A stretch of 5,817 nucleotides of DNA. It comes from a virus (taxonomy: Duplodnaviria > Heunggongvirae > Uroviricota > Caudoviricetes). The notes below the pieces were generated by a model. It searched no databases and was not told the origin of the DNA. It worked only from the letters and a program-made list of their open reading frames with translations. The translations under genes were made by a program, and so were the position numbers. How positions within the stretch are numbered: position 1 is the first letter of the stretch; every line of letters starts with the position of its first letter. Below are positions 3,021-5,817 of this stretch, one piece after another. The DNA lies in IMG/VR virus record IMGVR_UViG_2585427776_000006. The stretch is one strand, 5' to 3'.

Positions 3021-3156
3021 AAAAACTCCTGCCCGTAAGCTGGGCTGCTGAACATATAGAGACTTCTGCGCGTATTTCGACGTATGGGGAAACAAGTGTG
3101 ATTCGCCAACCGTATCATTAAGCCCGGCCCGAGTTACTGATGTTTATTCTTAAAAG

Positions 3157-3165
3157 AATTAACTG
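3157..3165. repeat. Left copy of the 9-bp direct repeat AATTAACTG flanking the AT-rich cassette (extended imperfect repeat TTCTT-N5-AATTAACTG begins at 3147)
   Basis: Exact 9-mer also present at 5026-5034. Both copies are preceded by TTCTT and a 5-nt spacer. Confidence 0.4.
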
Positions 3166-3192
3166 AAAAGAGGAAGGTTTGATGAGTTTTTT

Positions 3193-3210
3193 TACGTGAA
3201 TTAACACGTA
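3193..3210. promoter_or_regulatory. Palindrome TACGTG-AATTAA-CACGTA (6-bp arms, 6-bp spacer), candidate operator in the divergent intergenic region
   Basis: Perfect inverted repeat read directly from the sequence. Lies between the divergent Kil-position gene and the cassette promoter. Confidence 0.3.
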
Positions 3211-3306
3211 AGACTGCTGGTTATTAAACCATCACATTAGATATCTAAAAATTGTGATCGGTATCTCCCTACTATAAAAAAAAGTAGTTGAATATACGGT
3301 CTATAC

Positions 3307-3334
3307 TTGAAATAAATAAAAGTATTCTTATTTT
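3307..3334 (+). promoter_or_regulatory. Candidate sigma70 promoter for the cassette: -35 TTGAAA (3307-3312), 16-bp spacer, -10 TATTTT (3329-3334)
   Basis: Hexamers and spacing read from the sequence about 30 bp upstream of the gene A start. Other weaker combinations exist in this AT-rich region, so the exact promoter is uncertain. Confidence 0.3.
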
Positions 3335-3353
3335 TTAGATTCTGTGTTGTGAA

Positions 3354-3358
3354 AAGGA
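3354..3358 (+). promoter_or_regulatory. Ribosome-binding site AAGGA for the 343-aa ORF
   Basis: AAGGA lies 6 nt upstream of the ATG at 3365. Confidence 0.5.
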
Positions 3359-3364
3359 ATTTTT

Positions 3365-4396
3365 ATGTCCTCGAATATTTTATCTGGTGAAAAAGTAATC
3401 AATAAAATTGCTGAAAAGTTGAGCGATTATAAATATCCTCCGGCTGAAGGTATGAACTCTGAACATGTCAGCAAATGGATTAAGCAATTTGCAGTGGAGG
3501 ATAGACGATTTATCTTAGATGAAACGCTTTATCTACTTAATGCAGGTTACCTATCCGAAAGTCAATATCAACGAAAAATAAAAGCCATTGCAAGAAGTGA
3601 AAAGAACGCGAAACTCTTCAGATATGCAGGTTTTTTAGATATTCAAAAAAAAGGTTCTAGTCAGAAGGAATTGCTTAAATCTCTTTATGAAACAGTAGGG
3701 ATCAAATTTAACATCGTTACTGAATCATCAACTCAAGATGAAGTAAATAAATTTGATACATTTGTATATATTGATGATGTGTCGTTTTCAGGAGAAAAGG
3801 CCATCAAATCGATAAGTAATTTTGTTTTAAAATTTAATTTAAGAGATATTAAATTCAATGTATATTTTTTTTCATCTCATACGTTATCTGACTATAATAT
3901 AAAAAGACGATTAGAATATATTTTTAAGGATAGAAACATTTTTGTACACGTGAAGAATGGTGGTATGCGTGAGGTTGAAAACCGAAAAAGTCGTTCTGCT
4001 CAATCAGGTGTTTTCTGGCCAAGGAAATATAGTGTAGATACTCCCGAGAAATTCGAGGAGTGTGAGCTTTACAAAGGCGTATTCAGAGATGGATATGCCT
4101 CTTCTGATAGTTTTAGAAATGAAGCCTCAAGGGATCGTTTCGAATCTATCCTTACTAAAGTCGGCTTTAATATCTTGCTGCACAGGAAAACCCCTAGTGA
4201 GGTGCTCAAACCTCTAGGTTTTTCTACTTTTGACGGTTTGGGTTTTGGGGGAACAACATTTACTTATCGAAATTGCCCGAATAATGTGCCGCTGGCTTTT
4301 TGGTGGGGAGATTATGAACCAACAGGTGCTCCCGCATTGGACTGCTGGTATCCACTAATGAAGCGGAATGGGTATAATGAGTGGTATGAGCTATAG
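3365..4396 (+). CDS. Uncharacterised 343-aa protein, candidate toxin/effector of the cassette. Contains a phosphoribosyltransferase-like loop motif FVYIDDVSFSGEK (residues 133-145)
   Basis: Long ORF with a good SD and AT-rich codon usage distinct from the phage genes. The motif (four hydrophobics, DD, then V-S-F-S-G) resembles the PRPP-binding signature of type I PRTases (for example VLLVDDVLTTGGT), but that resemblance is my inference from a single short motif. No homolog recognised. Overlaps the downstream NADAR gene. Confidence 0.75.
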   Translation: MSSNILSGEKVINKIAEKLSDYKYPPAEGMNSEHVSKWIKQFAVEDRRFILDETLYLLNAGYLSESQYQRKIKAIARSEKNAKLFRYAGFLDIQKKGSSQKELLKSLYETVGIKFNIVTESSTQDEVNKFDTFVYIDDVSFSGEKAIKSISNFVLKFNLRDIKFNVYFFSSHTLSDYNIKRRLEYIFKDRNIFVHVKNGGMREVENRKSRSAQSGVFWPRKYSVDTPEKFEECELYKGVFRDGYASSDSFRNEASRDRFESILTKVGFNILLHRKTPSEVLKPLGFSTFDGLGFGGTTFTYRNCPNNVPLAFWWGDYEPTGAPALDCWYPLMKRNGYNEWYEL

Positions 4397-4997
4397 ATTA
4401 TATCCGCTACAGAACACAGTTTCCTTCAGGAAAACCACCGAAAAATGGGGGGGGCTTTCCAACATGGCTAAAGGATATCCATTGTTAATCAATGGGTTGC
4501 CTATTCAATCAAGTGAAATCCTTTACCAAGCATGCCGATATCCAGACTATCCGGATATACAAAAGGCCATCATTACTCAAGGAAACCCCTATGAAGCCAA
4601 GCAGACCGCAAGATCGTTTGAATCCAAAACTCGCGCAGGATGGGATAAGAATCGAGTTTCGATTATGAAGTGGTGTGTATGCGTAAAATTATGCCAGAAC
4701 TGGGATACGTTCTTTGCGCTGTTAGACAGTACAGGCGACCATTTCATCGTGGAACACTCAGAGAAGGACCAATTCTGGGGTGCCAGTAAAGACCCAGAAG
4801 GTAACTATTATGGTATGAACGTATTAGGGCGAATTCTCATGGACGTGAGAGGGGTTGCTAGGAAAAAGGGGGCTGATGGGTTTGCAACAATACCATCGCT
4901 ATCTTTGGACAAATTTTTTCTCCTAGGCGAAAGAATTAAAGATGTAACATTTGTAGAGCCAACGCCTGGAGCAGGGCAAAGTTTATCCTTGTTTTAG
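4368..4997 (+). CDS. NADAR (YbiA-like, DUF1768) domain protein, predicted ADP-ribosyl / N-glycoside hydrolase and candidate antitoxin or immunity partner
   Basis: Translation carries the NADAR signature blocks as I recall them from E. coli YbiA: GGLSNM (YbiA GDFSNF), SSEILYQACRY (YbiA TSEHYFQAQKF), IVEHSEKDQFWGAS (YbiA LVEHTENDAYWGDG) and NVLGRILMDVR (YbiA NRLGYLLMELR). Three in-frame ATGs (4368, 4377, 4386) all lie inside the end of the upstream gene, so the exact start is uncertain. Confidence 0.85.
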   Translation: MGIMSGMSYRLYPLQNTVSFRKTTEKWGGLSNMAKGYPLLINGLPIQSSEILYQACRYPDYPDIQKAIITQGNPYEAKQTARSFESKTRAGWDKNRVSIMKWCVCVKLCQNWDTFFALLDSTGDHFIVEHSEKDQFWGASKDPEGNYYGMNVLGRILMDVRGVARKKGADGFATIPSLSLDKFFLLGERIKDVTFVEPTPGAGQSLSLF

Positions 4998-5025
4998 CGT
5001 TCCATCTGGGGCATTTTCTTCCATA

Positions 5026-5034
5026 AATTAACTG
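5026..5034. repeat. Right copy of the 9-bp direct repeat AATTAACTG (preceded by TTCTT at 5016-5020)
   Basis: Exact match to 3157-3165. Sits 29 bp after the NADAR stop codon, at the point where composition returns to phage-like. Confidence 0.4.
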
Positions 5035-5107
5035 GCGTACCTCCCTCGGCGTTTTTTTGTTGCCATAAAAGGTTTTTGATTTTCTATAATCAACCAGCCA
5101 TAATCAT

Positions 5108-5136
5108 GTCACCGGAGCCTGAACAACTCCGGTGAC
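5108..5136. other. Perfect 10-bp inverted repeat GTCACCGGAG-(9 nt)-CTCCGGTGAC, a stable stem-loop
   Basis: Read directly from the sequence. No following T-run on either strand, so it is not a canonical intrinsic terminator. Possibly a processing or regulatory hairpin, or a remnant of the phage early-left leader. Confidence 0.4.
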
Positions 5137-5315
5137 TTCTGCGCTAAACGGGGACGTTTATGCGCACATACAATCTAAACTCTCTTCTCCCGCCACAGAT
5201 GCAGAAATGCACCTGCGATTTTTTGCATCCAGCGTTTGACCTCTGCGGAGGTGAAGCGTGAACCTCCCACAAGACGGCATCAAACTTCATCGCGGTAACT
5301 TCACCGCTATCGGTC

Positions 5316-5340
5316 TGAACCGCCCCGGGAATCCTGGAGA
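5316..5340 (+). repeat. Putative left terminal inverted repeat of the IS element (TGAACCGCCCCGGGAATCCTGGAGA)
   Basis: IS3-family ends begin with TG, and the spacing to orfA is typical. The right end is outside the window, so the repeat cannot be confirmed by pairing. Confidence 0.45.
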
Positions 5341-5369
5341 CTAAACTTCCTGAGAAAGAGGTAAACAGG

Positions 5370-5696
5370 ATGACTAAAAATACTCGTTTTTCCCCCGAAG
5401 TCCGTCAACGGGCAGTCCGTATGGTTCTGGAAAGTCAGAGCGAATATGACTCACAATGGGCGACAATTTGTTCCATTGCTCCAAAGATTGGCTGTACGCC
5501 GGAGACTCTGCGTGTCTGGGTTCGCCAGCATGAGCGGGATACCGGGGGCGGTGATGGAGGGCTCACCACCGCTGAACGTCAGCGTCTGAAAGAGCTGGAA
5601 CGTGAAAATCGTGAACTGCGCCGCAGTAACGATATCCTTCGCCAGGCTTCCGCTTATTTTGCGAAGGCGGAGTTCGACCGCCTCTGGAAAAAATGA
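5370..5696 (+). CDS. IS3-family transposase OrfA (helix-turn-helix DNA-binding part), 108 aa
   Basis: Translation [60 protein letters not shown]...[36 protein letters not shown], with the leucine-zipper-like C-terminus typical of IS3 OrfA. AGAGG SD upstream. Confidence 0.9.
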
Positions 5697-5817
5697 TGCC
5701 ACTGCTGGATAAGCTGCGTGAGCAGTACGGGGTCGGACCGCTATGCAGCGAACTGCATATTGCCCCGTCAACGTATTACCACTGTCAGCAACAGCGACAT
5801 CATCCGGATAAACGCAG
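5693..5817 (+). CDS. IS3-family transposase OrfB (catalytic part), N-terminal fragment truncated by the window end
   Basis: Translation [41 protein letters not shown]... in the -1 frame relative to orfA. An A6 run (5688-5693) at the orfA/orfB junction is a candidate programmed -1 frameshift site. Confidence 0.85.

Follow-up and report, generated by a model that had tools for sequence, protein, structure and literature searches.

The window, that is, the whole stretch of 5,817 nt analyzed, belongs to a decayed lambda-like prophage of the DLP12/phage-82-like lambdoid type. The features around the putative cargo are the following:

3075..3076 (no strand): junction of a secondary deletion of 5,134 bp with 2-bp (TT) microhomology, identified from the intact relative L027
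3075..3162 (+): 3' end of a methyltransferase pseudogene (MT-A70 family), which now stops at 3151-3153 and ancestrally stopped at 3160-3162; its left part was cut by the secondary deletion
3137..3156 (+): the 20 nt before the left repeat copy, the 3' coding end of MT-A70; contains TTCTT and matches 5006-5025 at 11/20 positions
3157..3165 (+): left copy of AATTAACTG at the end of the MT-A70 pseudogene, comprising AAT (ancestrally the last sense codon), TAA (ancestrally the stop, 3160-3162), and the next 3 nt (CTG)
3166..5025 (+): AT-rich insert of 1,860 bp between the copies, with the region upstream of DS-32, its two genes, and a short 3' tail
3307..3334 (+): sigma-70-like promoter TTGAAA-16-TATTTT, the best match upstream of DS-32A, weak and a consensus match only
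3365..4396 (+): DS-32A, phosphoribosyltransferase-like anti-phage protein of 343 aa (Pfam PRTase-CE, E = 2.2e-38; NCBIfam NF053875 DS32_1, 310.5 bits, cut-off 250)
4368..4997 (+): DS-32B, NADAR family anti-phage protein (Pfam NADAR, E = 5.7e-23; NCBIfam NF053876 DS32_2, 257.4 bits, cut-off 240)
5026..5034 (+): right copy of AATTAACTG, starting 29 nt after the NADAR stop and separated by 40 nt from the conserved promoter block of orf33
5035..5074 (+): linker of 40 bp (GCGTACCTCCCTCGGCGTTTTTTTGTTGCCATAAAAGG..), present only in DS-32 carriers and presumably left over from the intergenic DNA that once separated MT-A70 from orf33
5075..5159 (+): conserved nin-region promoter and leader; the -35 TTGATT (5076-5081) and -10 CATAAT (5099-5104) match the phage 82 annotation, and a 10-bp inverted repeat lies at 5108-5136
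5160..5261 (+): orf33 (ylcH-like, 33 codons)
5258..5315 (+): 5' part of ybcN, which is truncated by an IS3 insertion
5316..5817 (+): left part of an IS3-family element, with orfA at 5370-5696 and a frameshift pseudoknot at 5651-5767

Judged by its two gene products, both of which exceed the equivalog cut-offs, the cassette is DS-32, a published anti-phage system consisting of a PRTase-like and a NADAR protein. The DS-32B gene overlaps DS-32A, and its start in the RefSeq annotation corresponds to window position 4386. Protection against phage by DS-32 was reported as validated in the DefensePredictor paper (bioRxiv 10.1101/2025.01.08.631726). The PRTase and NADAR gene pair found here fits the description in the accessible part of that paper and shows no difference from the system as presented there; neither the flanking repeat nor the prophage slot appears in that part of its description of DS-32.

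The GC content was 27%–47% over the insert (27%–35% in its first ~800 bp) vs 49%–55% in the backbone. Fine-scale switches were located at ~3150, where the GC fraction drops from 0.48 to 0.24, and at 5034/5035; the right copy ends exactly at the GC rise, the 17 nt directly past 5034 having 71% GC. Promoter-like sites in the region were no more numerous than in shuffles. The terminator-like site after the NADAR gene (4999-5012) has a stem of only 5 bp, the RNA of the cassette 3' tail folds no better than shuffles, and the 40-bp linker has no significant RNA structure; no RNA or terminator role was found for the right flank.

The window contains exactly two copies of the 9-mer AATTAACTG, one at 3157-3165 and one at 5026-5034, each on the + strand. 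The initial annotation of this exact pair was thus confirmed, with no third full copy in the window, as was the placement of the right copy, which starts 29 nt past the last base of the NADAR stop (TAG, 4995-4997). The insert is directly flanked by a direct repeat of fixed length, 9 bp and exact. For the extended form, TTCTT-N5-AATTAACTG, 14 of 19 identities had been given, and a recount yielded 15/19. The 20 nt upstream of the two copies are identical at 11 of 20 positions (empirical P ~0.019), and this similarity is weaker in the Klebsiella alleles. In the extended repeat, the TTCTT on the left is plain MT-A70 coding sequence (TAT TCT TAA), and the one on the right is lost in the Klebsiella alleles.

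The left copy coincides precisely with the end of the MT-A70 gene of the backbone, the point where homology to cassette-free relatives ceases. The frame at this end reads TAT TCT TAA AAG AAT TAA; cassette-free homologs end with TAT TCG AAC GTT AAT TAG (L095) and TAC TCA CCA GTA GAT TGA (L096), and their stops fall on the equivalent codon. With the nearest MT-A70 genes that lack the cassette, DNA homology extends through AATTA and stops there. A longer (~29-nt) ancient duplication of the MT-A70 end (..GAFSSIN* vs ..YS*KN*) was considered and is not favored, because a perfect 9-mer beside 45% divergence is hard to obtain under neutral decay.

On the right, the bases following the CTG/CAG ending of the 9-mer towards the orf33 promoter are GCGTACCTCC..., and a right-flank sequence word on the orf33 side is TTTGATTTT. 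Backbone origin of the 40-bp linker is only presumed because the linker was never found without the cassette. On the left, the secondary deletion fuses the MT-A70 tail to DNA lying upstream of kil. This 5,134-bp deletion is unrelated to the cassette insertion, and kil adjoins the cassette region only because of it.

The cassette was always found with the same outer flanks and in one slot, which extends from replication gene P to the orf33-ybcN promoter. Among loci L001, L002, and L004-L008, this P/ren-to-orf33-promoter slot holds six different cargo sets, and in other prophages it is occupied by the serine-recombinase gene ybcK. Among 5,426 complete genomes of E. coli, 19 had the left flank, and the left inner end was present once in each of these, always at the same locus. 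All 19 genomes carry both copies in the same register, as do draft assemblies, viral and metagenome contigs, and the alleles of K. aerogenes and K. oxytoca, and the core is identical at both junctions in every allele, including those with AG at both sites. The E. coli-type and Klebsiella-type loci have only L001 3725-6188 in common; the Klebsiella loci therefore keep a 5'-truncated, frameshifted MT-A70 remnant, and the block thus travelled along with its flanks. There has been no independent movement of the cassette since its insertion, and the unit that is inherited and exchanged is a larger block, from mid-MT-A70 through orf33, transferred via recombination in flanking phage DNA. The mosaic breakpoints among related prophages are off the repeat: one lies 40 bp past the right copy (5074/5075), and the other is inside gene P, ~950 bp to the left.

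An empty site in which a single 9-mer joins the two flanks, proposed as confirmation in the initial annotation, was looked for and found to be absent from the collections searched. A 991-nt chimeric query gave no spanning genome among the 5,426 complete E. coli genomes, and the exact junction words gave no hits in one genome for each of 185,579 species, in IMG/VR, or in JGI metagenomes; the Klebsiella versions of these words revealed no empty site either. The same result was obtained upon comparison of the cassette segment with INPHARED phages and with plasmids and upon inspection of all contexts of the linked MT-A70 allele. A protein-based scan of species genomes found no relative, and the output of an A-rich left-site pattern search was mostly unrelated contigs. 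The same cassette with the same repeats was also sought elsewhere, and a second genomic context was never found in these collections. At L002, where a divergent DS-32 variant was placed independently in this slot, there is no flanking repeat, not even one of 8 nt, and other DS-32 loci are without the 9-bp motif.

Terminal inverted repeats were missing, the best ungapped match of the inner ends being 9/20, or 11/20 with the copies included. PRTase-CE and NADAR were the only domains in the cassette; no transposase or integrase is encoded in it, and no recombinase was found in the cassette or in this prophage segment. Since its inner ends are single-copy in E. coli genomes, the cassette is not a repeated element.

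The Klebsiella alleles, which are ~5% diverged, contain AATTAACAG at both sites. All E. coli-type alleles have TG at both sites, and both Klebsiella-type alleles have AG at both, so that the same T-to-A substitution is seen in the two copies. The probability expected for such a matched change under neutrality is 0.8%–2.8%, and no other pair among the 22 exact 9-mer pairs shows it. This co-variation represents one event on one branch, while the adjoining TTCTT decays. Avoidance of AACTG/CAGTT under restriction or methylation is an unconvincing cause of the change: three of four sites changed, but 4 of 318 five-mers do likewise, and the third change is a different substitution.

On balance, the 9-mers probably represent a one-off junction duplication that accompanied insertion of the cassette after the MT-A70 gene, rather than present mobility of the cassette; we infer this history from the anatomy of the locus. 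In a lambdoid phage of the DLP12/phage-82 type, a single recombination event would have put the AT-rich DS-32 cassette directly after the MT-A70 stop codon, within the cargo slot that extends from gene P to the orf33-ybcN (nin) promoter. The original gene end (AAT TAA CTG) would survive as the left copy, and its duplicate, the right copy, would now be fused to the former 40-bp intergenic DNA before the orf33 promoter. The duplicate could have been produced by single crossover of a DNA circle at a 9-bp microhomology, by unequal illegitimate exchange keeping both gene ends, or by fill-in of a staggered cut. Microhomology-mediated illegitimate recombination is the mechanism we favor because there are no terminal inverted repeats. 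The 5.1-kb deletion on the left and the IS3 insertion on the right reflect further decay of this prophage. Of the target-site duplication or att-like footprint proposed initially, an insertion scar at the cargo edges, marked by the MT-A70 end and the GC switch, was retained, and a transposon-type duplication or a working att site was not. Against a junction duplication stand the missing empty site and the distance of 40 bp between the right copy and the 5074/5075 divergence boundary; besides, the junction argument is post hoc, and chance commonly gives the flanks a shared 9-mer. The joint T-to-A substitution of the Klebsiella alleles also counts against it, since a single old duplication does not predict such a change.

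A coincidence is possible but rather doubtful. The repeat would then be an AT-rich word with a common gene ending (AAT TAA), and the copy after the NADAR gene would be historically unlinked to the MT-A70 end. A direct match of at least 9 nt anywhere between the two flanking intergenic zones appeared in 12%–19% of dinucleotide-preserving shuffles, and in 24%–38% when inverted matches were counted too. Other, unrelated exact repeats of 10, 10, 11, and 12 nt, meaningless in appearance, are present in the same 2.3 kb, and AATTAAC occurs a third time in the window region, at 3199-3205. The lack of an empty site, inverted repeats, and a recombinase, as well as the repeat-free L002 locus, agrees with coincidence. 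The shuffle estimate for a match anywhere between the flanks is superseded by the junction-specific test, in which a 9-mer overlapping the ancestral MT-A70 stop recurred in the right zone in 0.05%–0.6% of shuffles, or in 1.1%–2.2% upon relaxation to ±10 nt (P = 0.0005–0.02); these low values are somewhat discounted because the junction was defined only after the repeat position was known. The GC switch at the end of the right copy, the similarity of the upstream 20 nt, and the matched Klebsiella change, likewise post hoc, also argue against coincidence. The chance match in AT-rich DNA allowed for in the initial annotation is therefore common anywhere in the flanks and improbable exactly at the gene-end junction, and the MT-A70 junction, the GC rise after the right copy, and the matched Klebsiella reading make pure chance unlikely.

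The matched change could also point to functionally coupled sites, either an att-like core at which a recombinase acting in trans swaps the cargo, or two binding sites of the same protein, with the copies kept identical by selection or recombination. We consider this unlikely. The TG/TG state in E. coli-type and the AG/AG state in Klebsiella-type alleles, maintained while TTCTT decays and rarely expected under neutrality, would be accounted for; AACTG avoidance offers no convincing alternative, and the ybcK serine recombinase occupies the same slot in other prophages. The co-variation is, however, a single event, the segment contains no recombinase, neither an empty site nor a second context was found, other DS-32 loci lack the motif, and the left flank in the 19 E. 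coli genomes is always in the same place. The locus shares with integrase att cores an identical short sequence at both insert ends, kept through one matched substitution, and differs from them in lacking an integrase, an attB (empty site), and another context of integration; the att core of lambda is 15 bp. The narrower proposal that the 9-mers are a working core, with cassettes of the P-to-nin slot exchanged by a trans recombinase, for example of the ybcK type, appears quite improbable, although a need for matching cores would explain the joint T-to-A switch in the Klebsiella lineage. A classical target-site duplication made by the transposase of a transposon or IS has very little probability. 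The repeats are direct, surround a foreign-looking segment, and have the 9-bp length of the duplications of IS1, IS10, IS50, and IS903, but terminal inverted repeats and a transposase are lacking, and the insert is known at one site and in a single copy. This origin is effectively refuted because of the missing inverted repeats and the absence of additional copies.

Two further known phenomena lend themselves to comparison. Morons, in the usage of Juhala and Hendrix, are self-contained cargo cassettes between lambdoid backbone genes, usually described without flanking duplications. Like them, the DS-32 insert is a segment of foreign composition between backbone genes, in a slot variable among related prophages, with a cargo function that is predicted from its genes to benefit the lysogen; in contrast to them, it is bracketed by a 9-bp copy of the upstream gene end, and no convincing terminator was found. 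With short-homology illegitimate recombination in lambda and E. coli, for which relaxed recombination by phage Rad52-like recombinases has been described (De Paepe et al. 2014, PMC3945230), the locus shares very short identity at a novel joint. The separate deletion joint in this window has 2-bp microhomology as well, and exo/bet are encoded in the window. The difference is that no intermediate or empty site was observed here, and the mechanism is therefore deduced.

As an insertion scar, the repeat would fix the limits of the DS-32 cargo to the base, at 3166-5025, and the locus would present a rare, still-readable joint that created a phage defense moron, which bears on the acquisition of defense systems by prophages. 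The matched change in both copies is the sole hint of anything beyond a scar. What now spreads among the prophages of Escherichia and Klebsiella is the block from the MT-A70 tail to orf33, not the cassette itself.

The window contains the 9-mer AATTAACTG in exactly two places, 3157-3165 and 5026-5034, which are the positions given in the initial annotation; both copies lie on the + strand. The right copy starts 29 nt past the stop codon of the NADAR gene (TAG, 4995-4997). The extended match TTCTT-N5-AATTAACTG is also present, and 15 of its 19 positions are identical, against the 14 originally counted. The bracketed segment is a low-GC island (27%–47% GC, with 27%–35% in the first ~800 bp) compared to 49%–55% in the surrounding DNA, and it carries the following open reading frames:

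3365-4396, DS-32A, Pfam PRTase-CE; NCBIfam DS32_1, 310.5 bits versus an equivalog cut-off of 250
4368-4997, DS-32B, Pfam NADAR; NCBIfam DS32_2, 257.4 bits versus an equivalog cut-off of 240

This cassette is already known: the DefensePredictor study (10.1101/2025.01.08.631726) reports DS-32 as a validated two-gene anti-phage system consisting of a PRTase (DS-32A) and a NADAR protein (DS-32B). A DS-32-like locus of Enterobacter (L081-L084) comprises two PRTase-CE paralogs followed by NADAR, and its neighbours, chromosomal-type genes and a GpA-type terminase gene, make both context and gene count unlike those of the window.

The block 3075-5315 was found in 18 complete E. coli genomes at 99.4%–100% identity, its shorter part 3075-5146 in a 19th, and the block was also present in draft assemblies and viral/metagenome contigs. 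The usual setting is a DLP12/phage-82-like prophage with the gene order repressor, cro-like gene, ydaT, O, P, MT-A70 pseudogene, DS-32A, DS-32B, orf33, ybcN, ninE. In such prophages (L001, L002, L004-L008) the stretch from P/ren to the orf33 promoter serves as a slot, or hotspot, for cargo. In related prophages it is occupied by DUF4145 and a theta-like gene, by ren and small ORFs, by emrE-ybcK and a BstA-like gene, by ybcK and a hypothetical gene, or by a DS-32 variant only ~78% identical. In every case homology restarts at the -35 hexamer of the orf33-ybcN promoter, and in ~3,000 E. coli genomes the common right flank starts at 5074/5075, where the promoter annotated in phage 82 has its -35. 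The interval from this promoter to orf33 includes a perfect inverted repeat with 10-bp arms, GTCACCGGAG N9 CTCCGGTGAC (5108-5136); every related locus retains it, and the phage 82 annotation marks it as a possible binding site for a regulator.

The prophage in the window has decayed. A 5,134-bp deletion with a 2-bp TT microhomology (junction 3075/3076; positions 5486 and 10621 of the reverse complement of the intact relative L027) has fused the DNA upstream of kil to the final 79 nt of MT-A70. It took out the immunity and replication genes, and the prophage is therefore defective; kil lies beside the cassette solely through this secondary deletion, and its adjacency is irrelevant to the repeat. 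The same arrangement is seen in an IMG/VR contig (L017/L029). At 5316 ybcN is interrupted by an IS3-family element (5316-5817), whose left end starts with TGAACCGCCCCGGG and which contains an Rfam ALIL frameshift pseudoknot (5651-5767); the same insertion occurs in some relatives with intact left context (L014-L016). In other carriers exo adjoins the cassette region (L010) or bet is followed by P (L011), and these differing rearrangements indicate that the region left of DS-32 was deleted repeatedly while the cassette was retained.

Other repeats are present nearby. The exact 11-nt direct repeat GACTTCTGCGC, longer than the 9-mer, lies just upstream of kil (3061-3071) and just past the conserved hairpin upstream of orf33 (5134-5144), with a third copy, 82% identical, at 5238-5248. 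A perfect palindrome, TTACGTG-AATTAA-CACGTAA (3193-3212), upstream of the DS-32 promoter region includes a third AATTAAC and is degraded in Klebsiella alleles; together with 3138-3163 it belongs to an imperfect local repeat of 26 nt (family D3).

The end of the MT-A70 gene helps to locate the backbone/cargo junction. In the correct frame the pseudogene reads ...ARVTDVYS, TAA, then AAG AAT TAA, and the two nearest homologs lacking the cassette, with protein identities of 78% and 72%, finish three codons past YS, as ...YSNVN* and ...YSPVD*, with stop codons aligning to 3160-3162. AAT TAG of one cassette-free homolog (L095) aligns with AAT TAA of the window, and DNA similarity stops directly after. 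The left 9-mer is therefore made up of the backbone gene's ancestral final codon and stop codon plus 3 nt, and it sits exactly on an independently defined boundary between backbone and cargo. MT-A70 is a pseudogene in every carrier, with nonsense mutations at codon 9 and three codons before the ancestral stop in the E. coli type (L001, 3495-4079), and 5'-truncated and frameshifted in the Klebsiella type (L087, 3432-3787).

A chance match of the two 9-mers is less likely than not. A direct match of at least 9 nt between the two flanking intergenic zones appeared in 12%–19% of dinucleotide shuffles, and unrelated exact repeats of 10–12 nt exist within the same 2.3 kb; judged solely by this anywhere-in-flanks estimate and by other local repeats, the repeat is unremarkable. 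With the real junction sequence held fixed and the right zone shuffled, a 9-mer overlapping the ancestral stop recurred in 0.05%–0.6% of trials, and one within ±10 nt in 1.1%–2.2%. GC content jumps directly past the right copy (71% in the next 17 nt), which fits the 40-bp linker 5035-5074 being old backbone intergenic DNA, and the 20 nt preceding each copy match at 11/20 positions (empirical P about 0.019). These tests were all post hoc, made after the repeat was seen; even discounted accordingly, they jointly tip the balance away from pure chance.

The expected empty site was not recovered: none of 5,426 E. coli genomes spanned a chimeric query in which the MT-A70 3' end was followed by a single 9-mer and then by the right flank, and the exact junction words did not occur in a set with one genome for each of 185,579 species, in IMG/VR or in JGI metagenomes. 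The left inner flank, the linker and this MT-A70 allele were never found without the cassette in the searches made. Nor do the 9-mers act as boundaries among related prophages, as mosaic breakpoints relative to the closest cassette-free ones fall inside gene P (~950 bp left) and at 5074/5075 (40 bp right). Searches of the cassette for terminal inverted repeats and a recombinase found none. No repeat of even 8 nt flanks the divergent DS-32 copy that occupies the same slot in L002, and the flanks of that copy are not alignable with those of the window; in the Enterobacter locus, outside the lambdoid nin-region slot, homology is limited to 3247-4937. Taken together, these observations rule out an active transposon and leave an att system unsupported. 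Of the insertion footprint originally proposed, a classical transposon target-site duplication is thus effectively excluded, and a one-off junction duplication is favoured.

Diverged alleles were found only in K. aerogenes and K. oxytoca, with 104–127 differences from the E. coli type over ~2,190 positions and 51 between each other. Both carry AATTAACAG at both sites, and all E. coli-type alleles carry AATTAACTG at both. The block contains 22 exact 9-mer pairs, and in no other pair did both copies change yet stay identical (neutral expectation 0.8%–2.8%); the matched change is one event on one branch. It is predicted neither by a single old duplication nor by chance, and a small probability is therefore kept for a functionally coupled pair; an active or functional paired site remains improbable. 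The matched change would be expected from independent insertions into polymorphic targets, but these are hard to square with the failure to find empty sites; blocks of both lineages start within the same MT-A70 remnant, more simply explained by a single insertion followed by spread with flanks. Selection against the AACTG motif was not a convincing cause.

We somewhat favour the reading that the repeat is a one-off duplication of the junction, produced when DS-32 was inserted directly behind MT-A70. For its origin a microhomology-mediated mechanism would be preferred. After the insertion the block spread together with its flanks via ordinary phage recombination. The repeat itself is a modestly interesting feature of an ordinary kind.
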